In this document: piece by piece, positions 15,670 to 57,211 of the stretch
Layout of the letters: every line of letters begins with the position of its first letter
Numbering within the stretch: the first letter of the stretch is position 1
NCBI GenBank assembly: GCA_025351485.1
Contig: JANXVU010000089.1
Coordinates: forward strand, 6,513 to 70,512
DNA: 64,000 bases
Source of the DNA: Candidatus Eiseniibacteriota bacterium
Lineage (GTDB): Bacteria; Eisenbacteria; RBG-16-71-46; JACRLI01
Direction: 5' to 3'
The notes under the pieces: model-generated
The model's input: only the letters and a program-made list of their open reading frames with translations
Databases searched by the model: none
Told to the model about the DNA's origin: nothing
Translations under genes and position numbers: made by a program

Positions 15670-15765
15670 TGCCCGGACGGTGTGCAAGGTCGGGCAGACG
15701 CCCCATTCGTGGCCCCCGGCCCCGGGCATCGGAAGGATTTCCCAAGCGCTAGGAGCGGTGAACCC

Positions 15766-37163: not shown

Positions 37164-37312
37164 ATCCGAGGCATTGTAGGGCCCCCGGGGAGGCCGGTCA
37201 AATGGTGGAGTGGCCCCGGATCGGAGGTTGCAGACGCGGCCGGGAAGGCCCTACACTGCCAATCCAGATTCCGGACCCCAAATGTTCCGATTCCAATCAA
37301 GAGGAGGTCGCC

Positions 37313-40087: not shown

Positions 40088-40855
40088 ATGTCCACGCTGG
40101 TCGAACTGGTCCGAGCCAAGGACTACACCGCCTGCCTCGCCGTGCGCGAGGAGGGAGCGGCTGCCGTGCCCGCGCTGCTCGGGTTTGCCAACGACCGCGA
40201 CCCCGAAGTGCGCGAGCTTGCGCTTCACTGCCTGGACGAGATCGGGGGACCGGAGGCCGAACGCGCTTTCTGCGTGGGGCTCCTGGATCGAGACGCCCAG
40301 GTGCGCTCGGCGGCCATGAAGGGCGCCGGCCACCACTGCACCACGGCTTCGGTGGAGGCCCTGAATCACGCCTACGAGCAGAGCCCGGAGCCGGTGGTGC
40401 GCGAAAACGTGATGCTCATCCTGGGCGCGCTGCCGGGCATGGAAGCCGCGAAGCTGCGGGGCCGCTGGGAGCGCGAGAAGCTGCCGCTGGCCCACGACGG
40501 CGGGCGCGCCGCGATGGCCCGGCTCGGGGATCCGAAGGCCCAGGAAGAGTTTTCGGCGCGGCTCCTGGCTTCGGCCGGGACCGAGCGCGTCCGGCTCTTC
40601 GAATACGCGGGCTTCATCCGCCAGCCGTTCTTGCTGAAAACGCTCCTGCCGATCCTGGACGATGGTTCGGATGGGATCCGGATCGGCGCCGATGGAGTCA
40701 CGGAATGTCCCTACGCCCTGAAGTTCCGCGACATGGCCGTCAACCTGGCCGCCGCCATCAGCGGTCAGCGGTTCAGTTTCGAGATCCGGCCCAACATCAA
40801 CTACACCGACTCCCAGGTGTCCGAAGTCCGGCAGTACCTCGCCGGGCTGCGATGA
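40088..40855 (+). CDS. HEAT-repeat (PBS-lyase-type) protein, cytoplasmic paralog
   Basis: Repeated …DPEVRELALHCL… / …DAQVRSAAMKG… HEAT-like units. Shares a C-terminal block (…IRIGADG…) with the next gene. Confidence 0.55.
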   Translation: MSTLVELVRAKDYTACLAVREEGAAAVPALLGFANDRDPEVRELALHCLDEIGGPEAERAFCVGLLDRDAQVRSAAMKGAGHHCTTASVEALNHAYEQSPEPVVRENVMLILGALPGMEAAKLRGRWEREKLPLAHDGGRAAMARLGDPKAQEEFSARLLASAGTERVRLFEYAGFIRQPFLLKTLLPILDDGSDGIRIGADGVTECPYALKFRDMAVNLAAAISGQRFSFEIRPNINYTDSQVSEVRQYLAGLR

Positions 40856-41742
40856 GCCCGCGGGGCCGGCTCGCGCTGCTGGCGGCCATCGCCCTCGGGC
40901 TGGCCGCCTGCGGCGCATCTCCGCGCGGGGCCTCCGCCCCGAATTCCTCGCCCGCCCGCGTCTCCTCCGACAGCCTGCTCCAGTCGATCGAGGCCAAGGT
41001 CCGCGCGCACGACTACTCCGCGCAGAACGACGCGCGGGGACTCGGCGACGGGGCCTTTCCGCTGCTGGCGCGGCTCGCCACGGACCGCGATCCCGACGCC
41101 CGATCGCTGGCGCTGCTGTGCCTCGAGAGCGCTGGCGGTAGCCGCGGTGGCCGGGTGCTGGGTGCGGCGCTGAACGATTCTTCCGCCGACGTTCGCATGG
41201 TCGCCTCCCAGGCGCTGGGCCGGCGCCCATTCCCGGACGCCCTGCCGTACCTGCTATCCGCCGTACGAACGTCGGCCGATCCCGCGATCCGACGCAACTG
41301 CGCGCTGGCGGCGGGAATGATTCCCGGGGCCAGCGCCTCGAAGCTGCGCGAGAGCAGCCGCGCCGAGAAGGATCCCGATGTGCAAATGGCCCTGGTCCAG
41401 GCGCGCGCGCGCCTTGGCGACGGGGAAGCGCGCCGGGAGTTCCAGGCCGGGCTCACGTCCGCCCAGGGCCAGGTCCGCGTTTTATGGCTGGAACGCTGCA
41501 GGTACGTCGGAGAGCCCTGGGTTCTGTCCCCGCTGGCGCCATGGCTGGACGATACGCACCCCGCGGTGCGCATCGGGGCCGACGGCCTTCCGGGCCCGCA
41601 GTACCTTCGCGTGTGCGACGTGGTGATCAACCTGGCGGCTGAATTAGGGAAGCCCAGGTGGAGTTTCAAGACCGGGCCGGCGAAGAACTATTCGGAGGAA
41701 GAACGTAAGGAAGCCCGGCGGGTCCTGGGCTCCATTCGTTGA
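40852..41742 (+). CDS. HEAT-repeat lipoprotein (paralog of the preceding gene)
   Basis: Signal peptide with lipobox (LALLAAIALGLAACG). HEAT-like repeats (…DPDARSLALLCL…, …SADVRMVASQAL…, …DPAIRRNCALAAG…). ATGA overlap with the upstream gene. Confidence 0.55.
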   Translation: MSPRGRLALLAAIALGLAACGASPRGASAPNSSPARVSSDSLLQSIEAKVRAHDYSAQNDARGLGDGAFPLLARLATDRDPDARSLALLCLESAGGSRGGRVLGAALNDSSADVRMVASQALGRRPFPDALPYLLSAVRTSADPAIRRNCALAAGMIPGASASKLRESSRAEKDPDVQMALVQARARLGDGEARREFQAGLTSAQGQVRVLWLERCRYVGEPWVLSPLAPWLDDTHPAVRIGADGLPGPQYLRVCDVVINLAAELGKPRWSFKTGPAKNYSEEERKEARRVLGSIR

Positions 41743-41843: not shown

Positions 41844-42320
41844 CTACTTCAAAGAAATCGTGAACGCCTTGACGATCTCGTCGAACTGCTCCTCCAGCCG
41901 CGCGAAGGCCGATTCCGGGGCGCTGGCGGTGATGATGAACATCACCGGGTCCTTGTAGACGTACCACTGCGCCTGGCGCACGACCACGTCCTTGGGGTTC
42001 TTCCAGGCGTACTGGACGTAGTTTGCGGAGCGCCCCGCGAGGCTGCGGCGCTCCTTCTTGATCTCCTTGTAGTCGGGCAGCTGGCCCTGCAGATCGAGCA
42101 TCAGTCCCTGCGCGAAGCCTTCCACATCCTTGAGCCCGGGAATATTGTCCTGGGTCACGGCCAGCGAGGGCTGCATGTCCTGGATGGTCTCCGGGAGCGC
42201 CGCCAGGTAGACGGAGCGGTCGGTCCAGCCTTCGGGCAGGGCCATCTTGAAACATGCGCCCCTGAGCTCGGGAATCACGGGCTTGGTGGGCGGGTGCGCG
42301 GGCGCCTTGGCATCGGCCAT
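41844..42320 (-). CDS. DUF1795/DcrB-like protein: candidate Eag-type T6SS effector chaperone
   Basis: About 158 aa. Pattern …VYLAALPE…LAVTQDNIP… …YVQYAWKNP… …FIITASAPESAF… resembles the DUF1795 fold. Located immediately downstream of a PAAR protein that carries hydrophobic segments. Confidence 0.5.
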   Translation of the reverse strand: MADAKAPAHPPTKPVIPELRGACFKMALPEGWTDRSVYLAALPETIQDMQPSLAVTQDNIPGLKDVEGFAQGLMLDLQGQLPDYKEIKKERRSLAGRSANYVQYAWKNPKDVVVRQAQWYVYKDPVMFIITASAPESAFARLEEQFDEIVKAFTISLK

Positions 42321-42330
42321 GGAATCTCCG

Positions 42331-43017
42331 TTAGGACTCGACGGTCCAGGAATCCTTGTCGAGGTCGGTCAGTGTGAGTTCGCAGTTGCCGGCGGGCAGG
42401 CCGAATTCCACCACCATGCCGTCGTTCCGCGAGTGGCCCTTGCGGATCTTGCCGTCGGGCAGTTTCAAGTCGTAGGCCACGGCCACGGCGGGGTCTCCGC
42501 TTGCCAGGGTCAGCTTGGCCTTGAAGAAGTGGCGCTGCATGGGGCAGGGGGGTGGCGGTCCGAGCCCGCCGCCGGCAGCCGCCCCGGCTGTTCCGGCCGC
42601 ACACACCGGGGCCGCGCCCGCCAGGGCGCCGCTCACCGCGCTCGAAGGGATCGCGGCGAGATCCAGGAGCCCCAGCAGAATGGCGACGAGCGCCATGAGC
42701 ATGTCCAGGATGGAAACCCCGATGTCCCCGATCAGGACGGCCGGAAATCCCATCACGATGGTCCCGCCGTGCCCGTGCAGGCTGGTCATGCGGGCGGCCG
42801 GCATGCCGCCGAAGAATACTCCCATGGATCCCATCATGATGGGCGCGGGCGGGCCCGTGGCGCACGCGCACATGCCGCCCACCACGGCCGCAGGCTGGCC
42901 CCCGATCATGACCGTCGGGCACCCCGGCGGCATGACGACGCCGCCCACGTGGGGCACCAGCACGGTGAACATCGGGCACACGTGGGGATCGCCAACTCGA
43001 GCGGCGGGGAATCCCAT
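42331..43017 (-). CDS. PAAR-domain protein with hydrophobic (TM-like) region and small C-terminal domain: candidate T6SS spike-tip/effector
   Basis: PAAR-like repeats (…ARVGDPHVCPM… GCPTVMIGGQPAAVVGGMCAC… GGMPAARMTSLHGHGG… VLIGD). Then a hydrophobic stretch (…SILDMLMALVAILLGLLDLAAIP…) and an about 70 aa C-terminal domain. Confidence 0.65.
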   Translation of the reverse strand: MGFPAARVGDPHVCPMFTVLVPHVGGVVMPPGCPTVMIGGQPAAVVGGMCACATGPPAPIMMGSMGVFFGGMPAARMTSLHGHGGTIVMGFPAVLIGDIGVSILDMLMALVAILLGLLDLAAIPSSAVSGALAGAAPVCAAGTAGAAAGGGLGPPPPCPMQRHFFKAKLTLASGDPAVAVAYDLKLPDGKIRKGHSRNDGMVVEFGLPAGNCELTLTDLDKDSWTVES

Positions 43018-43304
43018 GGGGCGCTTCCTCCGGGTGAGTGCGGGGTCAGGATCGGAAAATTACTTCGCCTAGACTGCACCAAATCGGGCCGGACTGCAAC
43101 GGCGCGTTCGGCCGATTCCGGGGGGCCGGGGCCGGGCAACAGGCGGATCAAAAATAAATCGTCAACCCACCCCCTATATAGAATGATCCCGCGATTTGTC
43201 GCTTGGCAAAGACGGGCCGCTGCCTTACGTTCACCCCCTGTAAAATTGTCCTATATCCAGCCTCGCGGCTGGTGCGTTCGAGCCCGCAACCACGGAGGAG
43301 TATC

Positions 43305-43754
43305 GTGCCGAAGCAGAAATTCATCGGCGCTCAGCACGAGCGAGAAGCGGATCTCACCATGGGGGTGGAGATCCTCGACACGAACAAGACCCTTTTCGTC
43401 GCGGCCATGAATGAGCAGGCCGGAGACAACCCCGAGCCGATCCAGTGCCGGACCATGGGCGAGGTGTTCGACACCTTCAAGCCCAAGGTCGAGATCACCG
43501 TGGAAGGCGAGGACGGAGCCAACTCGGACGCCGAGATCAAGTTCAACCGTGTGGGCGACTTCCTGCCGGAATCCGTCATCGAGCAGTCCCCGGAACTTCG
43601 CGCGCAGCACACCGAGCTCCTGCTGCTCAAGGACCTCATGAACCAGCTGCGCAACAACAAGAGCCTGCGCAAGGCGGTGGACTCTCCCGACCGGGAAGTT
43701 CTCATCAAGGGTATCCAGGCGGCGCGCGCGGCCATCGGCGTGAAGGAGAGCTAG
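43305..43754 (+). CDS. tssB: T6SS contractile sheath small subunit TssB (VipA-like)
   Basis: About 150 aa, GGAGGAG RBS + GTG. Sits immediately upstream of the large sheath subunit. Sequence features are typical of TssB (…KQKFIGAQ…EREADLTMGVEILD…). Confidence 0.75.
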   Translation: MPKQKFIGAQHEREADLTMGVEILDTNKTLFVAAMNEQAGDNPEPIQCRTMGEVFDTFKPKVEITVEGEDGANSDAEIKFNRVGDFLPESVIEQSPELRAQHTELLLLKDLMNQLRNNKSLRKAVDSPDREVLIKGIQAARAAIGVKES

Positions 43755-43757
43755 TCC

Positions 43758-45179
43758 ATGGCAAACGAACAGGAACGCGCGCAAGAGCAGGCCGGAGCGG
43801 CCTACGCGGAACCGGCCAAGCCGGAAGACTTCACCTCGCAGCTCGCGGAGCTCAACGCTCCCAAGGCGGCGGGCAAGGCCGACGCCGCCATCGCGTGGCT
43901 GGGCAAGGCCATGCCGAGCGCTTCGGTGGAGGGCGCCAAGCTTCCGCCCATCGATCTGCTGGACCCGACCAAGAAGAAGCAGTACGAGGACCTGGTCAGG
44001 AACAAGAACTTTTCCGAGACCAAGGACCTGCTCGCCAAGCGGCTGAACGTCTGGAACGGCGCGCTCACGTCCTCCGAGGACCTTGAGACCCTCATCGAGA
44101 ACACCCAGCAGCGGCTGGAGAAGCTCGAGGAGCTGCTGAACAAGAACCTCAAGAAGGCGTTCGAGGTGATCCGCCCGCTGGAGACCAACTACCGCGCCGT
44201 GGACGGGTTCTTCATGAACGCCGCCGTGGAGGCGGGCGACAAGGTCGAGGTGAGCTTCCTGAACGCCTCCGCCGAGCAACTCCTGAACCCCGACGACCGC
44301 TCCATCTTCGAGGAAGGCCTTGCCGGCGCCATCCAGACGCGTTTCCGCGACTGGACGCTGAAGGAGACCTACTCGAACCTGTGCGTGCCGGGCTGGGTCG
44401 GCACGGTCCAGAACATCGACCGGCTGGGAATCCTGGGATCGCAGAACAAGGTCCAGGTGTTCTCGGACGCCGAGAACTACGAGAGCTTCAAGCAGCTCCA
44501 GGACAACCTGGACCAGCGGGCGTTCGAAGGCCTGCGTGGCGCCGGCCTGGAAAAGCAGTACGTCTCCCTGTTCGGCAACTGGCTGCTCGGGCGCAAGAAG
44601 TACGACTGGGAAGAAGACGACCTGTGGCTGCCGCCGTCGGCGCTGATGACCGGCGTGGTCTACAAGACCGACGAGACCAAGGGCATCCAGGAGGCCGCGG
44701 CCGGTTACCGCAAGGGCAAGATCCAGGGCTCGACCGGCGTGCGTTTCCGCGTCGATCGTCCCACCGGCGGCAAGATGCTGTTCCAGTACGGAGTCAGCCC
44801 GGTGGTGGACTGGGACGGCTACCCGATCGCCATGGGCGACGCCAACCTCTCGAGCAAGGAAGGCGTGGACGCTTACCCGCGCATCCGGACCGAGGACTGG
44901 CTGCTCAAGAACGTGTGCCACTACCTGAACAAGCAGGCCTACCAGAACATCACCGACACGTTCCGTTCGGCGGTGAAGGCCGACCTGCACGACTTCCTTT
45001 CCAAGTGCACCGGCCCGGACAGCGAAGTGAAGAGCTTCGACATCCAGGTGCAGGCCACCCCGGAAATGGAAAAGCGGCACGAAGTGGACGTGGTGCTGAC
45101 GGTGAAGTTCCAGAACTCGGTGCGTTCGTTCAACGTGAAGGTCAAGGAGGCCGACGCCCAGGTCCAGCAGGGCGCTTAG
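43758..45179 (+). CDS. tssC: T6SS contractile sheath large subunit TssC (VipB-like)
   Basis: 473 aa with the typical TssC length and conserved C-terminal sheath-domain blocks (…GYPIAMGDANLS…, …DVVLTVKFQNSV…). The tssB-tssC pairing is T6SS-specific. Confidence 0.8.
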   Translation: MANEQERAQEQAGAAYAEPAKPEDFTSQLAELNAPKAAGKADAAIAWLGKAMPSASVEGAKLPPIDLLDPTKKKQYEDLVRNKNFSETKDLLAKRLNVWNGALTSSEDLETLIENTQQRLEKLEELLNKNLKKAFEVIRPLETNYRAVDGFFMNAAVEAGDKVEVSFLNASAEQLLNPDDRSIFEEGLAGAIQTRFRDWTLKETYSNLCVPGWVGTVQNIDRLGILGSQNKVQVFSDAENYESFKQLQDNLDQRAFEGLRGAGLEKQYVSLFGNWLLGRKKYDWEEDDLWLPPSALMTGVVYKTDETKGIQEAAAGYRKGKIQGSTGVRFRVDRPTGGKMLFQYGVSPVVDWDGYPIAMGDANLSSKEGVDAYPRIRTEDWLLKNVCHYLNKQAYQNITDTFRSAVKADLHDFLSKCTGPDSEVKSFDIQVQATPEMEKRHEVDVVLTVKFQNSVRSFNVKVKEADAQVQQGA

Positions 45180-45256
45180 CCGGATTTCCATCGAACGTCC
45201 TCGGGTCCGCGGGTTGCCGCGGGCCTTCAAGGCAACCGTAACTCCAGGGAGCAATC

Positions 45257-45655
45257 ATGGCGCAGGAACCCAAGCTCAAGGTGGATGGAACCGCGGTTCC
45301 CAACCTGCTCTCGGTCTCCTACGGCCTCCGGGCCGGCGTGGACCGTGACGGGCGTCCCACCCGCATGCTCATCTTCGACGGAATCACCATTCGCCGAATC
45401 GGCGATGCCAAGACGACCCTCGCCAACTGGGCGAAGGACCCCAAGGAAAAGAACCGCAAGAGCGGGGAGATCGAGTTCTTCGGGGACGCCGGCAAGGCCA
45501 TCAAGAAACTGACCTGGAAGAACGGGTTCGTGAAGCACTACGACCTCCGTTACAATCCCGAGGCTGACCATGTGGAAGAGACTGTCGTGATCCAGGCCGA
45601 AGAGATCAACTCCGGCGGGATGAAGATCGAATGCCACTGGGCCGACAAGCAATAG
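45257..45655 (+). CDS. hcp: Hcp-like inner tube protein (paralog 1)
   Basis: 132 aa, located between tssC and vgrG. Sequence is β-rich, similar in size to Hcp family members. Assignment rests mainly on size and synteny. Confidence 0.55.
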   Translation: MAQEPKLKVDGTAVPNLLSVSYGLRAGVDRDGRPTRMLIFDGITIRRIGDAKTTLANWAKDPKEKNRKSGEIEFFGDAGKAIKKLTWKNGFVKHYDLRYNPEADHVEETVVIQAEEINSGGMKIECHWADKQ

Positions 45656-45669
45656 CGGAGGAATAGAAC

Positions 45670-46089
45670 ATGCCGATTCGTCAAATCAAGGTGGAGATCG
45701 ACGGCAAGCACATTTCCAACGTGCTCGCCGTGGACTACGGCCTGGAAGTGAGCCACGACGCCGACGGCAGCCCGAGCGATGCCCGCCCGCGCCTTGCCCG
45801 CATCTGCGTCACCCGCAAGACCGATGATTCGACGCAGCTGGGGGACTGGGCCTGCAAGCCCTTCCGCGGCCACTTCAAGTCCGGCAAGATCAGCTTCTTC
45901 GCGCCGGACGAAGAGACCAAGGTGCAGTCCACCATGTCATGGACCGATGGGTTCGTGACCCTGTACCGCGAATGGGTGCCGGACGTGCAGACGCACCGCG
46001 GGGATCCGATGGTGGAGTACATCGAGATCTCGGCCCAGAAGATCAAGATCAACGATACGGAAGTGGACGCGGACACCTGGACCACCTAG
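45670..46089 (+). CDS. hcp: Hcp-like inner tube protein (paralog 2, divergent)
   Basis: 139 aa. Shares the N-terminal pattern (…I.V.IDG…VS..YGL…) with paralog 1. GGAGGA RBS. Confidence 0.5.
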   Translation: MPIRQIKVEIDGKHISNVLAVDYGLEVSHDADGSPSDARPRLARICVTRKTDDSTQLGDWACKPFRGHFKSGKISFFAPDEETKVQSTMSWTDGFVTLYREWVPDVQTHRGDPMVEYIEISAQKIKINDTEVDADTWTT

Positions 46090-46189: not shown

Positions 46190-48151
46190 ATGTCAGCGCA
46201 TGCGGATATCGACGTCAAGATCGGCGGCAAGACCGCCGTCGACCTGGGAATCAAGCTCGGGCGGCTGGTGCTGAATGAAGCCCTCGGGGCGCACGCCACG
46301 TTCTCCCTGGAGTGCCACGCGCTGGACGAGGGCCAGGCCGTGCAGGTTTCGGGCAGCCAAGCCAAGCTGGACGACCTGTTCAAGCAGCTGGGCAAGGACC
46401 TGGAGATCACCGTCCTGTCGCCCGACCGAAACACCACCCGCCATTCGCTGCAGTTCGTCGGCCTGGTCACCGACGTGCACAGCCAGCGCCTGCGCGGGGG
46501 CGGCTATACGGTGTTCCTGGACGGCAAGAGCCACACCATCCTGATGGACATGGAAACCCACTACCGGTACGGCCCGCTGGACGACTCTGCCCGCCACCTG
46601 CGCACCTTCCTTGAAGTGATCACCGGCGAGTACGGAACCCTGTGCGCCCTGCAACTCAGCGCCAACCCGGTGGTGGACTACGGCATGCAGTCGGCCGAGA
46701 CCGATTTCAATTTCGTGAACCGCCTGGCTCAGCGCGAAAAGGCGTGGTGCTTCTACGACGGCGTGAAACTCCAGATCACCGACCAGCTCCCGTCCCAGGT
46801 GGTGGATCTGACCATGGGCCCGAACCAGGCCGAGGACGCCCTGGACGCATTCCGCATCCGCACCGCTCTGGCGGTGGGCTCCGTGGGCGTGGCCACCGAG
46901 GACTGGAAGACCGGAACGTTCATGGCGGTCAAGACCGACACCCTGGCGCTGCCGGCGGCCATCCACCCGTGGGCGCAGCAGACCCGCTCGGTGTACGAGG
47001 CCAAGAAGACCCACATCCAGGCCGAGTTCGCCGAGCGGCACATGGCCAGCCAGAGCGAGCTCGAGGGATACCTCACCGCCCGCAAGGCCGCGTGGGCCAG
47101 TCACCTGGTCCAGGTCGAGGGCAACTCGTCCAACGCCGACGTGCGGATCGCGCGCAAGGTCAACCTGACCGCCCTGGGCGTGGGCCAGGCCTCCAAGTAC
47201 GTGGTCTCGAGCGTGTCCCACACCATGGACATCTTCCGGGGCACCTACGAGAACCACTTCGAGGCGTTCCCCGAGGAGGGCGCGACCCCGCGCCAGTCCC
47301 ATCACCGCGAGCAGGCGCTGGAACTGTGCGAAGCCCGGGTGATGACCCAGGGCGACGACGACCACGTGGGCCAGGTGCAGGTGCAGTTCTTCGGCGCCGG
47401 CCAGCGCGGCCAGATGTGGGCCCGGGTGGCCCAGCCCATCGCGGGCAAGGGCGCGGGCATGTTCGTGATCCCCGAGACCGGCGACAGCGTGATGGTCTCG
47501 TTCCTGGACGGCGATCCCAGCCGGCCCGTGGTGGTGGGCAGCGTCTATCGCGGCCAGGCCGCGGGCAAGCCCAAGACCTGGGACGACGTGGACAACGTCG
47601 CCAAGAACACCAAGAAGATCTGGCACACCCGCAGCGGCCACAAGATCGTGTTCGAGGACGACCCGGACGGCAGCAAGACCGACGGGACCATCCTGATCAT
47701 CACCGGCGACGGCAAGAACGAGATCAAGCTCACCGGCAAGGGCGGAACCGAAAAGATCGAGATCCGCACCAAGGGCAACATCGCGATCGGCGCCGACGGT
47801 TCGATCAGCATGAGCGCCGGGGGTGATATCCACCTGGAAGCCGGCGGCGAAATCGGGCTCAAGTCCAAGAAGAAGACCACCGTGGACGCGACCGAGGACG
47901 CGATCGTGAAGTCCAAGAAGAACATCACCTTGAGTGCGACCGAGGACGGCAAGTTCGAGGCCACCAAGAACCTGGAGCTTTCGGCCACGCTGAAGCTGGC
48001 TGCTTCGGGAAAGACGGGCGCCAAGGTGTCCACGCCCGCGCAGCTGGAGGTTTCGGGAACGGCGTCGGCCAAGCTCTCCGGCGGGACCGGTTCGGTCACC
48101 TGCGATCCGGCCGGAGTGACGGCCATGGGCCCGATGATCAAGCTGAACTAG
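46190..48151 (+). CDS. vgrG: VgrG spike protein (gp27/gp5-like, with C-terminal β-helix repeats)
   Basis: Phage baseplate-V/gp5 OB-fold signature (…VIPETGDSVMVSFLDGDPSRPVVVGSVY…). N-terminal gp27-like region. C-terminal repetitive β-helix (…KIEIRTKGNIAIGADGSISMSAGGDIHLEAGGEIGLKSKK…). Confidence 0.85.
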   Translation: MSAHADIDVKIGGKTAVDLGIKLGRLVLNEALGAHATFSLECHALDEGQAVQVSGSQAKLDDLFKQLGKDLEITVLSPDRNTTRHSLQFVGLVTDVHSQRLRGGGYTVFLDGKSHTILMDMETHYRYGPLDDSARHLRTFLEVITGEYGTLCALQLSANPVVDYGMQSAETDFNFVNRLAQREKAWCFYDGVKLQITDQLPSQVVDLTMGPNQAEDALDAFRIRTALAVGSVGVATEDWKTGTFMAVKTDTLALPAAIHPWAQQTRSVYEAKKTHIQAEFAERHMASQSELEGYLTARKAAWASHLVQVEGNSSNADVRIARKVNLTALGVGQASKYVVSSVSHTMDIFRGTYENHFEAFPEEGATPRQSHHREQALELCEARVMTQGDDDHVGQVQVQFFGAGQRGQMWARVAQPIAGKGAGMFVIPETGDSVMVSFLDGDPSRPVVVGSVYRGQAAGKPKTWDDVDNVAKNTKKIWHTRSGHKIVFEDDPDGSKTDGTILIITGDGKNEIKLTGKGGTEKIEIRTKGNIAIGADGSISMSAGGDIHLEAGGEIGLKSKKKTTVDATEDAIVKSKKNITLSATEDGKFEATKNLELSATLKLAASGKTGAKVSTPAQLEVSGTASAKLSGGTGSVTCDPAGVTAMGPMIKLN

Positions 48152-48170: not shown

Positions 48171-49031
48171 ATGGCCCTTCCATTCCCGGTCCGGCGGTCC
48201 ATGTCCGGCGGCGCCGGCGGTTCGGCGCTGCCGCCCCTGCGTCTGCCCTTCACCATCGTGAGCACCGCCTCCAGCGGGCGCGCGCCCGCCGCGGGCCGGC
48301 GCAGCTGGGGCAACCGGCTGGGGCTCTGGTGGACCGATGCCGAGGAGGGCGAACCGGGCGTGGTGGTGACCGGCCTGCTGCCGCACGGGCCCGCATCCGC
48401 GGGCGGCGCGGTCAAGGTTGGCGACCTGGTGGTGGAAGTGGAAGGGGCGCGCGTCACGACCCTGGGAGACATCACCCGTTTTCTGGAAAACCAGGGCCCC
48501 GGACCGCTCCGCATGACCGTCAAGCGCGGCCCGCACGAGGAGCACACGGTGGTGCTGGACGTCCCGCCCGAGCCCGGAGAGGCCGCCGCGTCTGCCGCGG
48601 GGCCCGCCGGGGGCTACTCGGCCCGTGTTCCCACGACCGACCTCCTCGACTCGCTCAAGCGCAACATCGAGTGGATCCTGGGCAACCCGGTGCAGAGCGA
48701 GATCACCCACCCGGGAGTCTCCGCCGATCCCGAATTTGGCTGCCTGGGGGCGGACCTTGAATTCAGCCTGCGCACGGTGGGCCTGTCGGAAATCCGAAAC
48801 GCCATCGTGCAGTGCGAGCCCCGGCTCAAGGAAGTGGAAGTGGAGTCGGCCGAGTTCGAGGTGCGCGAAGAGGGCGAGGTCTCGCTCAAGCCGGGGATCC
48901 GCGTTCACGCCCTGATGTCCGGCACCGGGGAAAAGATCAAGATCGAATTGGAAGTCGCGGGCCTGGCCCGGGCGCGGTTCACCAACCGCCGCCGCACATC
49001 GGTGGAAGACGCGGGACTGGAGGGGCGGTAG
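48171..49031 (+). CDS. tssE: PDZ domain fused to gp25-like baseplate wedge protein (TssE-like)
   Basis: The N-terminal about 140 aa contain a PDZ-like fold (…GVVVTGLLPHGPASAGGAVKVGDLVVEVEGARVTTLGDI…). The C-terminal about 130 aa match the GPW/gp25 family (…LLDSLKRNIEWILGNPVQSEI…AIVQCEPRL…). High GC3 across both parts. Confidence 0.6.
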   Translation: MALPFPVRRSMSGGAGGSALPPLRLPFTIVSTASSGRAPAAGRRSWGNRLGLWWTDAEEGEPGVVVTGLLPHGPASAGGAVKVGDLVVEVEGARVTTLGDITRFLENQGPGPLRMTVKRGPHEEHTVVLDVPPEPGEAAASAAGPAGGYSARVPTTDLLDSLKRNIEWILGNPVQSEITHPGVSADPEFGCLGADLEFSLRTVGLSEIRNAIVQCEPRLKEVEVESAEFEVREEGEVSLKPGIRVHALMSGTGEKIKIELEVAGLARARFTNRRRTSVEDAGLEGR

Positions 49032-50759
49032 ATGGCGAGTGGATCCATGAGCCGAGGATGGGGCTGGCTCAAGCCCGAGGAGCGCGACTTTGAGGCCGTG
49101 CTCCGGCGGCTGCACAAGGAAGCCTCCGAATCCATCCCCGGCCTTTCGCCCGACCCCAAGCAGGCCGACCCGGTGATCGTGATGCTCCTGCGCGCGTTCG
49201 CGCGCGAATACGTGGAGCTCTACCATCTGCTGGACGACTCGGTGGGCATGGCCTACCGAACCCTGGTTTCCCGCCTGGTGGCGTTCCCGCACGCTCCCGA
49301 GCCCGCCACCACCGCCCTGCAGCTGGTGGTGAAGGACGCCGGCGCCAAGGTGCCGATCGACTTCGAGGCCATCTCCTCCCAGCCCGTGATCCTGGCAGGC
49401 AGGCGCAGCGTGCAGGCCCACTTTTCGCCCTACGACGAGGGCGTGGTGTCCAGCTTCGAAGCGGGACCGGTGGCGCTGGTGGAGCCTTCGGGCGTGGCCT
49501 GGCGGATGAGCCTGAACCCCAATGAGACTTCCGCGGGCCGCTGGCAGGCGCCGCCTCGCAACTACGCTTCGCTGTTCCTGGCCCTGGATTCACCCTCGCC
49601 CTCGGCCACCGACCCGGTCACGGTGTTCGTGCACGGGGGCGACCGCGCGGTGCAGCAGTGCCTGTGGTCGCGCTGGGTGATTCCGGCCTCCCAGGGGGGG
49701 CCGGCCATCCGGATCCACGACAACGTGCCGGAGCCGTTCGTGCCGGGGAAGGTGTTCTACGAGGGCGCCCCGTTCGAGCCCCCGATGTTCACCTTCCGCA
49801 GCGACGCGCGGCGCATCCGCAGCCCCTACGAGCCGCAGTTCGTGAAGGTCGGCGGCGAGGCGCTGCTCTCCCAGGCGTGCCCGTTCCCCAGGGAACTGGG
49901 GTCCCCGGGAGTGGCGCTTTCGCAGCCCCACGGCACGCGCCACTGGGTGCGGGTCGACCTGCCGCCCGACGTGGACCTGACGGCGCTGCGGCAGGTGCGC
50001 TTCGCCACCAATGCCGTGCTGGCCGCCAACCGCGAGCTGCGCACCTCGGGCGCGATCAACGTGGACGCCACACCCATCCACACCTGGCTCTTCCCCGAGA
50101 CCGTCGATTTCGATTCGCTGCTGCGCCTGGAACGGGTGATCGACCTGAAGTCGGGGCACCTGTACCAGTCGTCGGACTCGCACGAAGGCCTGGAGTCCCC
50201 GCGCGCCTACCGCCTGGTGGAGTGGCTGGACGGCGAGCGGCGGGCGCTCAAGGTGGAATTGCTGAACCGCGAGGACACTCCGCGGGCGAGCCAGGTGGAA
50301 ATCGTGTACTCGCTCACGCTGGGCACGGCCGCCAACGGGCTGGAGCCGGGCACGATCAGCCAGGTGTTCACGCCGCCCCAGGTGTTTCCGGGTCTCCTGT
50401 CCGTCAATAACCTGGTCCCGGCGATCGGCGGACGCCCGGCGCGCACCGCGGACCTGCAGGAAGACGAACTCCGCGCCGCGCTGCGCCACCGCGGCCGCAC
50501 GGTGGTCGCGAGCGACTACCTGGAGTCCGCGCGCGCGTTCGATCCGGATCGCGTCACGTCCGTTTCCCTGGGCCGGGGCGTGGCCCGTGGCCCGCGGGGG
50601 CTCCGCAGCACGGTGCGCCTGGACGTGGAGCTGAACGCCGCGGCGTTCGTAAGCGCCATGGAGCGCGAGTCGTTCCGTCTGCGCCTCGAAGGCTACCTGC
50701 AAGACCGGTCTGCGATGGGCGAGTGCGTCGAGGTGCGGCTGGCCGGAGGGCCCGCTTGA
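49032..50759 (+). CDS. tssF: Baseplate protein TssF-like (gp6-like)
   Basis: 575 aa. The N-terminal block (…DPVIVMLLRAFAREYVELYHLLDDS…) fits the TssF N-terminal consensus. Position after tssE. Confidence 0.6.
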   Translation: MASGSMSRGWGWLKPEERDFEAVLRRLHKEASESIPGLSPDPKQADPVIVMLLRAFAREYVELYHLLDDSVGMAYRTLVSRLVAFPHAPEPATTALQLVVKDAGAKVPIDFEAISSQPVILAGRRSVQAHFSPYDEGVVSSFEAGPVALVEPSGVAWRMSLNPNETSAGRWQAPPRNYASLFLALDSPSPSATDPVTVFVHGGDRAVQQCLWSRWVIPASQGGPAIRIHDNVPEPFVPGKVFYEGAPFEPPMFTFRSDARRIRSPYEPQFVKVGGEALLSQACPFPRELGSPGVALSQPHGTRHWVRVDLPPDVDLTALRQVRFATNAVLAANRELRTSGAINVDATPIHTWLFPETVDFDSLLRLERVIDLKSGHLYQSSDSHEGLESPRAYRLVEWLDGERRALKVELLNREDTPRASQVEIVYSLTLGTAANGLEPGTISQVFTPPQVFPGLLSVNNLVPAIGGRPARTADLQEDELRAALRHRGRTVVASDYLESARAFDPDRVTSVSLGRGVARGPRGLRSTVRLDVELNAAAFVSAMERESFRLRLEGYLQDRSAMGECVEVRLAGGPA

Positions 50760-51787
50760 CCGCCGCCCTTCAACTGATCATGCCGGACCTGCTGGCCGAG
50801 CGGCCGGGGGATGCGGTGGAGAGTGCGATCCTGTCCCTGGTGGAGATGGGCGCAGACCGCCAGCAGATCGAACTCATCCCGGTGGGCATCTTTCGCCGCT
50901 ACCGCGGCCAGCTGCTGGGCTTCTACCCCGCGCTGGGCGTCGAGGTCCGGCAGGGCGACACCATCCGCCTCTACGTGGCCGAGCGGGGCCTGGCCGACCG
51001 GCTGCCCGAGGGGCTGCTCGCCCCGCTCCCCGACGAGGGCCGGCCCGAAAGCGTGTTCGACACCCAGAACGGCGGGATCATTCCTCCGACCGGGTGGGAG
51101 GCGCCTCCGGATGGGGCGCCGGGGCAGGGCTACGACCCGGAGGAACTGTTCCACCGCCAGCTGGACGGCGGCCGCAAGCTGCTTCGCCTGCTGGACCGGG
51201 CGCTGCGACGGGCCCGCCGGGACGTGATCTTGCAGCGGCAGTCGCTGAAGTTCCTGGTCAATGATCCTCGATTTGCCCGGAACCTCCTGGGCCTCCTGCA
51301 CCTGGAGGCGCTGGATTCGGGGGATGCGGCGGCCGTTTATGCAGCGGCCTCGCTGGCGGGCTTCCAGGACGCCGTGGGCACGCTGGAAGAGGCTGCCGCC
51401 TTCCTGGCCCAGCTGTTCCAGGTGGAGGTGCGGGCCGAGGAGGCCCGCGCGGGAATGCTGCCCATTCCCAAGCCGCTGCACATGAAGCTCGGCGGCCCCA
51501 ATGCCCGGCTGGGGCAGGGCAGCGTGCCGGGACGGAACTTCCGCGACCCCCGGCCGGCGGTCAAGCTGCTCGTGGGCCCCATGGGCGCCGAAAATGCCGC
51601 GCGCCGCTACCGGGACGAGTGGGCCCGGCGCTCGTTCGAAAACGCGGCCGCTGCCATGGTGCCGGCTTCCCGACCTTTCAAGGTGATCTATGACGTGGTC
51701 CGGGAGGAGCGCAAGGCGCGCCCCGGGCTTCTGCCGCACGCGCTGCTGGGGCAGACGATGTACCTGGGACGCCCCCGAACCGCCTGA
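50756..51787 (+). CDS. tssG: Baseplate protein TssG-like
   Basis: About 340 aa, translationally coupled to tssF (candidate TTG overlapping TGA). Assignment rests on size and synteny; sequence is weakly diagnostic. Confidence 0.45.
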   Translation: MTAALQLIMPDLLAERPGDAVESAILSLVEMGADRQQIELIPVGIFRRYRGQLLGFYPALGVEVRQGDTIRLYVAERGLADRLPEGLLAPLPDEGRPESVFDTQNGGIIPPTGWEAPPDGAPGQGYDPEELFHRQLDGGRKLLRLLDRALRRARRDVILQRQSLKFLVNDPRFARNLLGLLHLEALDSGDAAAVYAAASLAGFQDAVGTLEEAAAFLAQLFQVEVRAEEARAGMLPIPKPLHMKLGGPNARLGQGSVPGRNFRDPRPAVKLLVGPMGAENAARRYRDEWARRSFENAAAAMVPASRPFKVIYDVVREERKARPGLLPHALLGQTMYLGRPRTA

Positions 51788-51901: not shown

Positions 51902-53335
51902 ATGCCCTTCGATCGCCGCGGATCCGTGAACTGGCAGGACGGGATGCTCATTGAATCGTCCCACCTCACGGCCGAGACGGAGTTCCTGCGTTCCCTGGCG
52001 GCCCGCTCCGCCCGGACCGCCCTGGGTTCGTTCGGCCTGTACGCCGACCCGGGCGAGACCGCCCCGCTGGACTTGCAAGTAAGCGCCTCCGGCGGGGAGT
52101 GCACGGCCGAGCTGCGCCGCTTCCGTGGATTTTTTCCGGACGGCACCTGGGTGGACTTCGACTCGCCCGAGGCCGGCACGGTGCTCGGCCGCACCATGCT
52201 GGAAGGCTCCGGCCCCAGCTCGGTGGGTGTGTTCCTGTACGCGCACGAGGATGAATTCCTGGGGATCGGCGAGCCCGACCCCGCCGACGACCCGCCGCGC
52301 AGCCCCTACCGGCTTCCCCGCCTGGAGCTCCGGCTCGGCGAGGACCCCAAATGGCCCCGGGGACGCAGCCTGCGCCTGGCCACCGTGCAGGTGAACGGAG
52401 GCGTCGCCGTGATGGATGGCGCGCACGTGCCGCCGTCCGCCACGCTGGCCTCGTGGCCGGCGCTGCGGGAGCTGGGGGAGCGCTACGGCGAATACCTGGA
52501 GCGGTGGCGCCGGCTGGCGATCGGCAACTTCATCACGCTGCTTCCCATCGCCACGGCGCCCGCGGGCGGGCTGGGGCGCGAGATCGCCTACGCCAAGCGC
52601 GAAACGGCTTTCCAGCTGGCGGTCGAGATTTCCCGCAACCAGTCGGCCCAGCCGCTGCTCACCCGGGTGGGATCGCCCGCCGAGTGGTTCGCCTCGGTGC
52701 AGACCAACGCCCGCCTGATCGCGACGCTGCTGGAGCTGAACCGCGACCTGGCCGGAGCCATGCAGGACGGCGCCAATTTTGCAGCGGCCATGGGCACGCT
52801 GCGCGACACCTCCACGTTCGACGTGTACCAGGAATCGCTGCGGGCGATGGTCCAGCAGGTGGAAGTGTTCATCGACGCGGTGGAGACGCTCCTGACCGGT
52901 CTGTTCGAGGCGCGCGAGGGCGAGAAGGACGTGCTGCGCTACCGCGACAAGGAGTACGCGTTCACTCCGTACGCCAAGAGAGTGTACCGGCGCGAGTCCG
53001 ACCGCGAATACCTCGAGATCCAGGGGCTCTCGGCCTCCGAGGTGGAGGACTACGTCGTGCTCATGAAGGGCGGCATCGGCGCGGCGGTACGCAAGTCGCC
53101 GCCCAACACCCACGTGGGGCCCAACGAGCGCTCCACCTGGCCCCAGGCCGACCCGGCGTTCGTCGACCACACCTTCATGGACGGCGCGGCCCTGTTTCAC
53201 CCCCATGGATTCCAGCCGCAGCGCGAGATCAACCGCCTGACCCTTATCTGCATCGGCGGCGGCGACCTCTCGATCTTCGAGCAGGGCGATGACCAGGACG
53301 TGCGAGTGTTCATTCGCAGGAAGGCGAGTTCGTAG
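51902..53335 (+). CDS. tssK: Baseplate protein TssK-like
   Basis: About 477 aa. The N-terminus …VNWQDGMLIESSHL… resembles the TssK 'W.EGM.L.PQHFQ' start. Position after tssG. Confidence 0.55.
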   Translation: MPFDRRGSVNWQDGMLIESSHLTAETEFLRSLAARSARTALGSFGLYADPGETAPLDLQVSASGGECTAELRRFRGFFPDGTWVDFDSPEAGTVLGRTMLEGSGPSSVGVFLYAHEDEFLGIGEPDPADDPPRSPYRLPRLELRLGEDPKWPRGRSLRLATVQVNGGVAVMDGAHVPPSATLASWPALRELGERYGEYLERWRRLAIGNFITLLPIATAPAGGLGREIAYAKRETAFQLAVEISRNQSAQPLLTRVGSPAEWFASVQTNARLIATLLELNRDLAGAMQDGANFAAAMGTLRDTSTFDVYQESLRAMVQQVEVFIDAVETLLTGLFEAREGEKDVLRYRDKEYAFTPYAKRVYRRESDREYLEIQGLSASEVEDYVVLMKGGIGAAVRKSPPNTHVGPNERSTWPQADPAFVDHTFMDGAALFHPHGFQPQREINRLTLICIGGGDLSIFEQGDDQDVRVFIRRKASS

Positions 53336-53343
53336 GACCACCT

Positions 53344-54288
53344 ATGCCCACGCTAGTCGAAAACATCGACAACCTGTTTGCGGAGATCGGCGCGCTCGAA
53401 AAGGGCGGCGCCTTTTCCCCGGATTCGTTCAACCAGAACCTGAAGGGCATCCTTTCGGCGTTCGAGCTGCTCCGCAACCAGCAGGAGCTGGGCTCGATGG
53501 CCGACGACGCCCTGTACACGCGCATCCGCGAGGTGGAGCCCACCGAGTCGCAGCTGCGCTTCCTGACCTCCCACATCCTGGGGATGTACCTGGAAGCGTG
53601 GGCCCACGGACCTTCGGGCTACCGCCGCTCCTACCAGGACCTGCTGCGCTTCCGGCCCGACGACGCGCGAGTGGACGGCGACTTCATCGAGATCGTGCTC
53701 ATGCCGCGCCTGCTGGTGCTGCGCGACCTGGGCGGCCAGGCCGACCTGGGCTACCACCTGTTGATGCACCTGGCCGACTATCTGCAAACGTTCGGCGCTC
53801 CCTCCGGCCTGCCCGCCAGGCCCACGCGCGCCGACCTGGAGGCGATGGGCCCGTCCAGGCTGCTGCTGGGTTTCGCGCGGCGCCGGCTGGCGTTCCCGGG
53901 CAAGCGCCTGGTGGACATGCCGGACGCCTGGGAATACGGGCTGGCCCGCGAAAAGTACTTCGAGTCGCTGCGGGTCCGGGGCAAGAAGCTGCAGCTGGAC
54001 CTGGAAGCCTACCTGCTCCGGCTGGACCTGCTGAGCAAAGTGCCCTGGTGGAAGCGCCTGCTGGATGCCATCGGGCGCTTCTTCCGCGCGATCGGCACGT
54101 GGCTGGGAGCCAGGCTGGAAAAGCTGCCGGCCGGCGGAGTGTTCTGGTCGGCGTTCTGGGTGGTTTTTTCGCTCGCGGTGATGGTGGGCGTGACCCTGCT
54201 GTGGCTCTCCTTCTATGAACATCGCCTGCGGGACTTCCGCGGCAAGGGCCTGAACGCGCAGACGCGCGACATGGAGGTGGTCAAGTGA
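53344..54288 (+). CDS. Cytoplasmic protein with single C-terminal TM anchor: candidate TssL/DotU-like membrane-complex component
   Basis: 314 aa. One predicted TM helix near the C-terminus (…GVFWSAFWVVFSLAVMVGVTLLWLSF…) with a short tail. Topology and position after tssK resemble TssL; there is no sequence-level proof. Confidence 0.35.
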   Translation: MPTLVENIDNLFAEIGALEKGGAFSPDSFNQNLKGILSAFELLRNQQELGSMADDALYTRIREVEPTESQLRFLTSHILGMYLEAWAHGPSGYRRSYQDLLRFRPDDARVDGDFIEIVLMPRLLVLRDLGGQADLGYHLLMHLADYLQTFGAPSGLPARPTRADLEAMGPSRLLLGFARRRLAFPGKRLVDMPDAWEYGLAREKYFESLRVRGKKLQLDLEAYLLRLDLLSKVPWWKRLLDAIGRFFRAIGTWLGARLEKLPAGGVFWSAFWVVFSLAVMVGVTLLWLSFYEHRLRDFRGKGLNAQTRDMEVVK

Positions 54289-56528
54289 GCGGCTTGATTG
54301 GAACCTTCATGGCCAACGCGCAGAATGCCGCCGACACCGCCAAGCAGGCGCGCGAAATGGGCAAGAACGCCAGGAAGACCCAGGACGGGCGGCGCATCTA
54401 CAAGATCGCCTGCCTGGGCCACGCCCGCAGCGGCAAGACCACCTACTGGAGCGTGTTCCACGAGGCCAGCCGCGGCCGCATGGACGAATTCAACATCCAG
54501 ACGGGCGACAACACCACCGCGGCCTACCTGGTGCGGCAGCGGGAAGCCATGCAGTCGGGCGCGTTCTACATCCCCGCGCCCGGCGAAAAACCCGCCGACT
54601 ACGAGCCGGGGTATCCGCCCGAATCCGACCTGCTGGTGAATCTGTTGTTCATGGCGCGCGAAGGCGGCGGCCGCGAGATTCCGATCATGGTGCAGGACTA
54701 TCCGGGACGGGCCATCAGCATCGAGGACACCGATGGGCGCGCCCAGGAAGTGGTGGAATTTCTCAAGGGCGCGGACGGGATCCTGTTCTTCGTGGACGCC
54801 TACTCCACCCGCGAAAGCCCGCACAAACTCACCGAGCAGCTGCTGGGATTCAACTCGCTTCTGAAGCACCTCGAGGACCGGCACGGCCGCATCAACAGGC
54901 CGGTGGGCCTGGTGCTGACCAAGGCGGACATGCTGGACGAGTACCGGCCGGCCAACCCGTCGGAGCTCATCTCGGACGCCGACCAGCGCCGCCGTGGCGA
55001 GATCTACAGCAAGTTCCTGGCGCAGCTCCTGAAGGGCAACGTGTTCGCCCAGGACGCCGCGTGGAAGACCCGCGTGGAAAAGACGCTCACGCGACTTCGC
55101 TCGTTCGCCGACGCGCTGCTCAAGAAGACCCAGGCCACCCAGTTCTTCGTGGTCTCGGCGGTCGGCGACAAGCGCCGGAGGCCCATCGAGCCCGCCGCGG
55201 CCGGGGACAGCATCGCCAACACCAGCATGGCCGCCAGCAGCAGCTCCATGGCGTTTGCCGTGGGGCGCCACGAGACCGGCATGGAAGAGCCGCTGCGCTG
55301 GATGATCCACCAGCTCCTGGTCAAGAACCAGGTGCGCAAGGCCGACCGGCTGCGCAACGGCGCCCTGGCGGCCGCGGCCGTCTACTCGCTCGCCCTGACG
55401 CTTCCGTTCCTGCTCTACCTGGGATGCGCGGTGCCGCGCCTGGAGGCAGACCTGCGCAAGGAGCCGCTGCCGGCCCTGCAGATCCTTAAGGACACCCGGG
55501 GGTTCGAGGAGAACCACCTGGTGAAGCTGTGGTCGGTGATGACCCGCCACCACGATTTCCTGCCGTCCGCGCAGGCCATTCGCACCCGGGTGGCCGACCG
55601 GGTGGTGGAAGAGGGCCGCAACGCGCTCCTGACCGTGCTCAGCCACAACAAGGCACGCGGCGTGAACCCGGACCCGGAAGCTTCGGAGTTCTGCTCCCGG
55701 TGGGGGTTCTTCCTGGAGACCTGCACCCAGGAGCTCCGGGATTCCACGGCCGACTACCGCGACTCGCGGGCCAAGATGTACTGCCTGCGAAAGGTCTTCA
55801 TCCAGGCCGGCACCAACTTCAAGCTGGCCAGCACCAACGACCGGCGCGACGCGTTCCTGAACCTGACGCGCCTCGCCGGCACCCAGTTGTGCATGGAGGA
55901 TACGGTCAAGCTGGCGGCCCAGGCCCTGGCCGACGGCATCACCAAGGACGACCGGATCGCCCCGGCCCCGGTGCCCAGCGCTGCGGCCGGCGGCGGCGGT
56001 GGCGGTGGCGGGCCCTCGCTCAAGGACTCCTACAACACCGCGGTGGCCCAGTTCGGGCCGGGCAGCCCGCCGGAGTCGCGCGTCAGCCTGAAGCTGATTT
56101 CGGACCTGGAAGGCCTGCTCGCCTCGCGCTACCCCCACGACGCCGTGTCGGTGGAGGTGGAAAAACGGATCCACGCCTACCTCTCGGCGGTGGAGAAGTT
56201 CAAGAACGGCACGCCGCTCAAGCTCAAGGTCACGCAGCTGTCCAGCCCGGCGCGGCTCAAGCTTCCGGAAGTCAGCGGGGAGAGGGAGTACCTGCCGGAC
56301 GACGAGATCTCGATCCCTCGCTGGAAGCTGAACAGCAAGGTGCGGTTCGTGTTCTACGCCAACCTGAACTCCGCGCCGCTGGTGCTGGACGACCTGGTGG
56401 GCAAGCAGAACCAGCCGCTGCAGGTGAACCTGCCGGCCAAGGCCGGAGGCAACGTGGTGTTCCAGTTCGAGGTCAGCTCGCCGCCGGTGACGGATGAAAC
56501 CGTGCCGCCGCTGTCGAAGATTCCCTAG
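54285..56528 (+). CDS. P-loop GTPase/NTPase domain membrane protein (747 aa): possible non-canonical TssM-like component
   Basis: Walker A (ACLGHARSGKTTYW) at residue about 40, Walker B-like (ILFFVDA) and NKxD-like (LVLTKAD). One predicted TM at about residue 385 (…AAAVYSLALTLPFLLYLGCAV…) followed by about 350 aa. The GTG start overlaps the upstream stop (GTGA). Confidence 0.55.
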   Translation: MSGLIGTFMANAQNAADTAKQAREMGKNARKTQDGRRIYKIACLGHARSGKTTYWSVFHEASRGRMDEFNIQTGDNTTAAYLVRQREAMQSGAFYIPAPGEKPADYEPGYPPESDLLVNLLFMAREGGGREIPIMVQDYPGRAISIEDTDGRAQEVVEFLKGADGILFFVDAYSTRESPHKLTEQLLGFNSLLKHLEDRHGRINRPVGLVLTKADMLDEYRPANPSELISDADQRRRGEIYSKFLAQLLKGNVFAQDAAWKTRVEKTLTRLRSFADALLKKTQATQFFVVSAVGDKRRRPIEPAAAGDSIANTSMAASSSSMAFAVGRHETGMEEPLRWMIHQLLVKNQVRKADRLRNGALAAAAVYSLALTLPFLLYLGCAVPRLEADLRKEPLPALQILKDTRGFEENHLVKLWSVMTRHHDFLPSAQAIRTRVADRVVEEGRNALLTVLSHNKARGVNPDPEASEFCSRWGFFLETCTQELRDSTADYRDSRAKMYCLRKVFIQAGTNFKLASTNDRRDAFLNLTRLAGTQLCMEDTVKLAAQALADGITKDDRIAPAPVPSAAAGGGGGGGGPSLKDSYNTAVAQFGPGSPPESRVSLKLISDLEGLLASRYPHDAVSVEVEKRIHAYLSAVEKFKNGTPLKLKVTQLSSPARLKLPEVSGEREYLPDDEISIPRWKLNSKVRFVFYANLNSAPLVLDDLVGKQNQPLQVNLPAKAGGNVVFQFEVSSPPVTDETVPPLSKIP

Positions 56529-57151: not shown

Positions 57152-57211
57152 GCCTCCGGGGTGACGTTCAAAGGCCGCGTGCTCCGGCCGGGTTGACCTT
57201 CCTTGTATCCG

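Follow-up and report, generated by a model that had tools for sequence, protein, structure and literature searches.

A TssE baseplate subunit with an HtrA-type PDZ domain upstream of its gp25 core is encoded by a divergent type VI secretion system (T6SS) locus on contig JANXVU010000089.1 of a Candidatus Eiseniibacteriota genome (GCA_025351485.1). The stretch analyzed, hereafter the window, spans 64,000 nucleotides (nt), and the gene, here termed PDZ-tssE, lies in it between vgrG and tssF. Its product is a single cytoplasmic polypeptide in which no transmembrane (TM) or signal segment was found. The earlier note on this DNA, drawn up from the sequence alone, had placed PDZ and gp25/TssE parts in one open reading frame (ORF) at positions 48171 to 49031; we recovered the same coordinates, ATG start, and length of 286 amino acids (aa), and both domains were matched within it. 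The evenly high GC content at third codon positions (GC3) that had also been described was borne out, with values of 0.67 to 1.0 over the entire ORF, 5' end included. The TAG of PDZ-tssE is directly joined to the ATG of tssF (TAGATG), and its ATG at 48171 is also kept in the 87%-identical orthologue at locus L018.

The PDZ domain was recognized by profile and structure comparisons. In Pfam, PDZ_6 (PF17820) scored 36.5 bits against a cut-off of 27 (aa 65 to 119) and PDZ (PF00595) 31.9 bits against 23.2 (aa 55 to 117), and a profile search of PDB sequences matched the PDZ domains of DegP and site-2 proteases with E values as low as 5e-11. AlphaFold2 (AF2), run on an 18-sequence alignment, returned a mean predicted local distance difference test (pLDDT) score of 70.4 for the whole protein and of about 70 to 91 per 10-residue block for the PDZ domain, with values above 80 across most of the latter. 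Foldseek aligned the predicted domain with the PDZs of HtrA3, DegS, MucD, and HhoA (root mean square deviation, 1.5 to 3.0 Å over 69 to 98 residues), and it overlays the peptide-bound PDZs of HtrA3 and DegS at 2 to 3 Å. The “GVVVTGL” and “VGDVI..V.G” strands of HtrA-type PDZs are also found in PDZ-TssE. The earlier note had described a PDZ-like fold of about 140 aa: the PDZ is present, but the fold itself occupies only about 87 aa (aa 45 to 131), between a leader of 44 aa and a linker of 19 aa. An Arg-rich helix of 25 aa at the C terminus had been absent from that description.

Invariant positions in the PDZ domain cluster in the loop and first strand (S45, G47, L50, G51, W53, and W54) and in the groove helix (L98 and R103). 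In alignments the loop corresponds to “MGLFL/MGVYL” in proteins with tandem PDZs, and from its position and from what is established for PDZ domains we take R49-L50-G51-L52-W53-W54 to be the x-Phi-G-Phi loop. Because this ligand loop and the groove helix are the best-conserved parts of the domain, peptide binding is probably retained.

The C-terminal half is a divergent gp25/TssE-like core. The domain scan proposed in the earlier note succeeded outright for the PDZ domain, both Pfam models scoring above gathering, and fell slightly short for GPW_gp25 (PF04965), whose match to aa 157 to 232 (E = 7.4e-6) reached 26.1 of the 27.2 bits required. The NCBIfam TssE model TIGR03357 matched aa 149 to 262 (E = 4.3e-5) with 23.2 bits against an equivalog cut-off of 53.2. 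The identity of the core is supported, despite the subthreshold Pfam score, by hhalign, which aligned it at 98.7 to 99.2% probability with the unfused TssE proteins of three related loci (the sister loci, treated below); these proteins themselves match PF04965. P187, F189, G190, C191, E216, and R218 are invariant in the family alignment, and the PxFGC and EPR motifs align, weakly and at motif level (E values of 0.11 to 0.9), with those of AlgoCIS, the Anabaena contractile injection system, and T4 gp25 (5iv5_T). AF2 predicted helices at aa 158 to 171 and 205 to 215 and strands at aa 219 to 233, 236 to 249, and 255 to 261 (pLDDT, 76 to 91). In this predicted alpha/beta arrangement the last three strands make up a sheet like that of the sheath “handshake.” Foldseek searches of BFVD matched the C-terminal half to models of baseplate wedge, gpW, and sheath-initiator proteins with probabilities of 0.90 to 0.96 and weak E values.

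The remaining segments are of three kinds. The 44-aa leader bears a conserved LPPxRLPFT motif (aa 20 to 28) in which P22, L25, and P26 are almost invariant; the linker varies in length and sequence; and the C-terminal extension is predicted to be helical at aa 262 to 283. The pLDDT fell below 50 in the leader (aa 1 to 42), the linker (aa 138 to 152), and the DPEFGC loop (aa 184 to 198).

Homologues confirmed that the two parts belong to one protein. A search of 5.8 billion proteins returned 10 homologues of 261 to 289 aa (46 to 100% BLASTP identity), and PDZ domains are on record in nine of them (P0001 to P0008 and P0010, all with precomputed Pfam listed). When 1.84 billion cluster representatives were searched with a profile, the best 150 matches included at least three further full-length members; independent PDZ-gp25 fusions may lie beyond those matches. 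All 13 complete homologues (38 to 87% identity) are collinear with both parts in one frame, and none has a stop between the PDZ and gp25 parts. A gp25-only profile search returned no unfused close relative, only the fragments P0017 and P0041. These two were considered as natural short TssE proteins and ruled out, since contig ends cut both: the former begins 65 nt from a contig end, and the latter starts with the very first nucleotide of its 1-kb contig. Three other short matches (P0018, P0019, and P0022) look like fragments because a normal start or end is absent.

The alternative that the PDZ part is an annotation artefact, with TssE starting near the linker and the sequence 5' of it either wrongly joined to the ORF or belonging to another gene, is essentially excluded. 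It could draw on the size of the gp25 part, which at about 136 aa is that of a usual TssE, and on the disagreement of gene callers about the start (48171 versus 48201). Against it, the 13 homologues have neither an in-frame stop nor a conserved start between the domains, the linker (dN/dS, 0.31 between the window and L018) has no conserved Met, the short homologues that were traced are contig-end truncations, and only 19 nt separate the ORF from the stop of vgrG. The earlier note had named an internal start at about 48.49 kb, or a stop between the two parts in orthologues, as outcomes that would undo the fusion, and had asked whether orthologous loci keep it or carry separate genes. The fusion survives on each count: the internal ATG at 48513 (Met115, “MTVKRG”) lies within a PDZ beta-strand and is replaced by L, V, F, or I in homologues, the part upstream of it is under equal purifying selection (dN/dS between the window and L018, 0.09 for the PDZ and 0.085 for gp25), and the complete orthologues are all fused. 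Collinear homologues, an unconserved Met115, and similar dN/dS values together indicate that both halves are translated and equally constrained, and these comparisons make translation from the internal ATG implausible.

TssC homologues fall into two tiers, and the fusion follows them. Where TssC identity is 67% or more (the window, L006, L015, and L021), a fused protein of 273 to 287 aa is encoded, whereas the three independent sister loci L012, L014, and L016, with TssC at 47 to 50% identity, encode an unfused TssE of 130 to 142 aa with a PF04965 match and share the order tssB-tssC-hcp-hcp-vgrG-tssE-tssF-tssG. The position of tssE between vgrG and tssF is common to the window and nine related loci, of which six are fused (L001, L005, L006, L015, L018, and L021) and three are not. 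No PDZ gene was found within 10 kb on either side at the sister loci, and their TssE proteins stop at the last beta-strand, without the C-terminal helix. Given unfused TssE in the same gene order at three sister loci, the PDZ domain (and the C-terminal helix) is, as far as these comparisons indicate, a derived feature gained once in one small clade.

The PDZ clade also carries its own accessory or anchoring set: a TssK-like protein, a tail-anchored protein (p314), and a P-loop/TM protein (p747). Within the approximately 10 kb sampled, L012 and L014 had no BLASTP-detectable homologue of these three or of a small secreted or membrane protein (m172), and L016 had no TssK-like homologue by gene content. 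What follows tssG at the sister loci is, instead, a set of genes for three proteins with signal peptides (about 300 to 390 aa) and a TPR protein (L012, 17562 to 20682; L014, 17394 to 20499; L016, 9248 to 12052; all on the minus strand), which may represent a different envelope complex. No TssK was recognizable within 10 kb at these loci.

The fused family is very rare. At least four full-length 50%-identity clusters were found among the 1.84 billion representatives (best 150 matches), together with one locus among 185,579 GTDB species genomes and two in the JGI metagenome collection. The sole GTDB-genome relative (L009/L006, DATKKS010000117.1) comes from a bin labeled Candidatus Saccharimonadales, a group in which one would not expect a T6SS contig of high GC content, so the contig is probably misbinned.

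The reading we favor, with a probability of roughly 0.55, is that the PDZ domain is a peptide-docking module present on each baseplate wedge, most likely with a partner in a clade-specific anchoring or assembly module, and that the gp25 core is an ordinary TssE. The core would bind the TssF2-TssG wedge through its retained E-x-R motif and nucleate the first sheath ring. The PDZ domain, on its flexible 19-aa linker, would capture its partner by beta-strand addition, holding either a free C-terminal tail or a beta-strand that the partner exposes. The groove for this is predicted to be bounded by the R-L-G-L-W-W loop/strand and the L98/R103 helix, both invariant, and each baseplate would gain six additional tethering sites. 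The likeliest partners would be encoded next to it: the TssK-like protein, p314 with its tail anchor, or the P-loop domain of p747, which is cytoplasmic. The PDZ would then supply a baseplate-to-membrane-anchor or wedge-assembly contact; a comparable contact in T6SSi is the direct binding of TssE to TssL. [quoted passage not shown]

Several observations weigh against a docking role of this kind. A survey of C-terminal tails among the proteins of the locus gave no convincing cytoplasmic ligand: the conserved tails of p747 (“...ETVPPLSKIP”) and m172 (“...K[RK]W”) are on predicted periplasmic C termini, the “...KLN” tail of VgrG is conserved to the same degree in the sister clade, which has no PDZ, Hcp tails are shared too, and the C termini of the cytoplasmic candidates (the TssK-like protein, TssB, TssC, TssF, and TssG) are neither hydrophobic nor strongly conserved. 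The co-occurrence of the PDZ with the TssK-like protein, p314, and p747 is confounded by phylogeny, since it amounts to a single evolutionary event. In known baseplates, moreover, TssE sits on the inner, sheath-proximal face, not obviously on the membrane side, and PDZ domains may lose peptide binding and remain as mere packing domains.

Other partners for the PDZ domain are less probable to differing degrees. It is possible, if unlikely, that the domain clamps the nucleating sheath or tube by gripping the flexible C-terminal tail of a contractile-tail subunit in the first layer, either TssC (“...FNVKVKEaDAQVqqga”) or an Hcp (“...W-T/A”), which would strengthen the gp25-type beta-strand “handshake” between sheath and baseplate. 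The C-terminal strands of gp25/TssE accept the C-terminal strand of a sheath subunit, and TssE adjoins the first sheath/tube ring (PMC5924787). PDZ domains likewise use beta-augmentation, and TssC tails differ by clade (conserved “DAQ[VL]” in the PDZ clade, “AGNT.V” in the sister clade). One to four variable residues nevertheless follow “DAQV,” so that the spacing between this motif and the free carboxylate is not constant; Trp-bearing Hcp tails occur in the PDZ-less sister clade as well, and the homologous sheath of the sister systems is nucleated without any PDZ.

We consider it improbable that the PDZ binds the Arg-rich C-terminal helix or tail of its own or a neighboring TssE, closing the six-wedge ring or inhibiting the subunit until assembly. 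Both the PDZ and the 25-aa extension are missing from sister TssE, so that the two were acquired together in one lineage, and the tail has no nonsynonymous changes between the window and L018; yet the extreme C terminus varies across the family (EDAGLEGR, RDGEDSPR, REGGMRTP, and DDADGS) and is acidic or polar, whereas the ligands of HtrA-type PDZs are hydrophobic. Recruitment of effector, adaptor, or immunity proteins through their C-terminal tails has about as little in its favor: PDZ domains are generic tail binders, and an extended PAAR protein, a DcrB-like protein (its gene recurring in L021), and a C70 papain-like peptidase are all encoded in the same locus, but L015 has no cargo-like region (clpV is directly beside tssB), although no member of the family deviates in the PDZ groove, and known T6SS cargo rides on VgrG, PAAR, or Hcp rather than on TssE. 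Between the two kinds of ligand raised in the earlier note, effector tails would be less likely than membrane-complex tails.

A separate question is whether the PDZ domain was added at the N terminus or inserted into TssE. The leader motif may represent beta-strand 1 of TssE, moved from its usual place, and a bolder version, which we hold to be doubtful, has the PDZ inserted in the N-terminal beta-hairpin (LPPxRLPFT as the displaced strand 1, “ARVPTT” as strand 2), coupling the wedge to a p314/p747 anchor in a T6SS subtype distinct from i to iv. The leader sequence RLPFTIV is similar to the strand at the N terminus of sister TssE proteins that lack the fusion (YVKLPFGF and YLVLPLRL). In them this strand is followed directly by “GRM..LEDSI,” the counterpart of “ARVPTTDLLDSL” after the PDZ. 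A hidden Markov model (HMM) of the leader motif gave no significant match to sister TssE (P = 0.03 to 0.18). Deleting the PDZ in silico raised the TIGR03357 score from 23.2 to only 26.2 bits; the construct is in register with 7aeb_S, but not across the first strand. The hhalign alignment does reach into the leader motif, scoring 116.8 as against 112.3; of 200 column shuffles, 8 scored at least as high as observed, but a reversed control scored higher (120.8), and AF2 gives no ordered structure for aa 1 to 42.

The gene is embedded in a T6SS locus whose features are listed in the table below. The order vgrG, PDZ-tssE, tssF, tssG, tssK-like, p314, p747 is kept wherever contigs extend far enough: p314 follows the TssK-like gene in L001, L005, L006, and L010, and in L015 and L021 vgrG, PDZ-tssE, and tssF are kept before the contig ends, with the adjacent tssK-like and p314-like genes of L015 located upstream. 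The tssF-like product has no Pfam match and is 34% identical to sister TssF, itself a weak match to PF05947. The N-domain of p747 matches PF19993 (30.9 bits), its TM segment is at aa 361 to 379, and its C-terminal tail (“[DE]E[TI][VI]P[PS]L..P”) is conserved. In topology, p314 resembles TssL and p747 resembles TssM; no homology of p314 or p747 to TssL or TssM was detected, nor any of p314 to TssL/DotU. Together they may constitute an undescribed T6SS membrane anchor.

Around this core, m172 (56653 to 57171, minus strand; 166 to 172 aa) has an N-terminal hydrophobic segment and the C-terminal motif “...IEV..K[RK]W.” Its gene adjoins p747 in the window, L005, and L010; PP2C and FHA genes come next in L005 and L010 and are not there in the window. 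On the other side of the structural genes, the PAAR and DcrB-like proteins are likely a cargo/immunity (toxin/immunity) pair, and the DcrB-like gene is present in L021 too. An AvrRpt2/C70 papain-like cysteine protease (37106 to 37753, plus strand; 47.9 bits), encoded between clpV and the structural genes, is a candidate effector, and two overlapping candidate HEAT-repeat ORFs (40088 to 41742, plus strand) occupy the variable region between clpV and tssB. A Ser/Thr kinase-FGE-sulfatase fusion adjoins clpV (32732 to 34663, minus strand), occurs also in L015 (2651 to 4477, minus strand), and may regulate the T6SS.

Farther away, TrmD (27147 to 27899) and RNase HII (28368 to 29051) are encoded close to a full-length 6S RNA (29536 to 29712, minus strand; RF00013, 57.3 bits), which places the locus in a chromosomal setting. 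A polysaccharide cluster includes a 1,288-aa fusion of glutamine-dependent asparagine synthase and a GT4 glycosyltransferase (11765 to 15631, plus strand), a Wza-like exporter (3631 to 5190), a Wzy_C/O-antigen ligase-like protein (6340 to 7740), and an epimerase/dehydratase (15658 to 16749).

Table. Features of PDZ-tssE and of the surrounding T6SS locus in the window
Feature	Position	Strand	Description
clpV/tssH	34656-37163	-	Clp_N, AAA, AAA_2, ClpB_D2-small
DcrB-like protein	41844-42320	-	PF08786; adjoins PAAR gene
PAAR protein	42331-43017	-	228 aa; PF05488; uncharacterized C-terminal extension of about 140 aa
tssB	43203-43754	+	PF05591 VipA; true start probably further downstream
tssC	43758-45179	+	PF17541 TssC, 178.6 bits
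Two hcp genes	45257-45655, 45670-46089	+	PF17642 TssD (block 45242-46089)
vgrG	46190-48151	+	Phage_GPD, Phage_base_V; TIGR01646
PDZ-tssE	48171-49031	+	286 aa from its ATG; ATG 48201 used in public gene calls (276 aa)
N-terminal leader motif LPPLRLPFTIVST	48228-48266	+	aa 20-32
PDZ domain, HtrA/PDZ_2 type	48303-48563	+	aa 45-131; Pfam, PDB profiles, AF2, Foldseek, dN/dS
Putative carboxylate-binding loop and first strand, G-N-R-L-G-L-W-W	48309-48332	+	aa 47-54
Pro/Ala/Gly linker	48564-48620	+	aa 132-150, 19 aa
gp25/TssE-like core	48621-48953	+	aa 151-261; DPEFGC loop, E216-P-R218 motif
Arg-rich C-terminal helix and tail, clade specific	48954-49028	+	aa 262-286, 25 aa
tssF-like	49032-50759	+	575 aa; assigned by position and weak TIGR02243 baseplate match
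tssG	50723-51787	+	PF06996; TIGR03347; public gene call starts at 50756
TssK-like, PDZ-clade specific	51902-53335	+	477 aa; TIGR03353, 25.7 bits, aa 12-197
p314	53344-54288	+	About 270 aa cytoplasmic and one C-terminal hydrophobic segment; predicted tail-anchored
p747	54285-56528	+	P-loop GHARSGKT, DO-GTPase2-like N-domain, one TM, C-terminal domain of about 370 aa

Among the parts of contractile injection machines, TssE/gp25 is held to be a sheath-initiator that is minimal and invariant, and the TssE and gp25 proteins described to our knowledge consist of a single domain of about 130 aa. If TssE bears a conserved domain for peptide binding, this would point to a contact that is made differently, or not at all, elsewhere. 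The case is confined to a rare uncultured lineage; the PDZ domain offers a handle for finding the docking partner of a divergent T6SS baseplate, the anchoring of noncanonical T6SSs being an open topic. With a PDZ on each of six wedges, a contractile nanomachine would also have natural tethering sites open to engineering. In agreement with the earlier note, which knew of no such fusion in described T6SS loci, no PDZ-TssE/gp25 fusion is described in the literature searched on T6SS, gp25, and contractile injection, including a 2026 review of T6SS accessory factors.

With TssE, T4 gp25, and P2 gpW, PDZ-TssE shares the DP[ED]FGC loop, the E-P-R motif, the vgrG/tssF neighborhood, and a core likewise predicted to run helix, helix, and three long beta-strands; from a usual TssE it differs by an N-terminal part of 150 aa (leader, PDZ, and linker) and the 25-aa Arg-rich C-terminal helix. 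The best sequence and fold matches of its PDZ are those of HtrA/DegP/DegS and site-2 proteases (PF13180 and PF17820), yet unlike HtrA-type proteins it has no protease domain, is cytoplasmic rather than periplasmic, and carries its PDZ on a subunit of a contractile machine. Among secretion systems, the Bacteroidota T6SSiii (TssB-K plus a TssNOPQR membrane complex) is close, with the same type of TssC (PF17541) and Hcp (PF17642) and a membrane protein gene right after tssK, like tssN. Among the subset of window ORFs that were scanned, TssJLM and TssA had no match, and TssN to TssR had none among the syntenic candidates downstream of tssG, namely the 477-, 314-, and 747-aa proteins (Pfam and NCBIfam) and m172 (Pfam). 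Unlike T6SSiii, the present locus lies in a 67.7% GC, non-Bacteroidota-like genome, encodes tail-anchored and P-loop/TM proteins, and has a PDZ on TssE; it is best filed as a divergent T6SSiii-like system whose TssE has accreted a PDZ domain. Evolved VgrG, Hcp-toxin, PAAR-toxin, and TssL-peptidoglycan-binding fusions (the 2026 review gives TssL/TagL as an example) follow the same logic of an accessory domain on a core subunit. In those fusions, toxins or cell wall anchors are borne by spike, tube, or membrane subunits, whereas in PDZ-TssE a putative peptide-binding scaffold is borne by the wedge and sheath-initiator.

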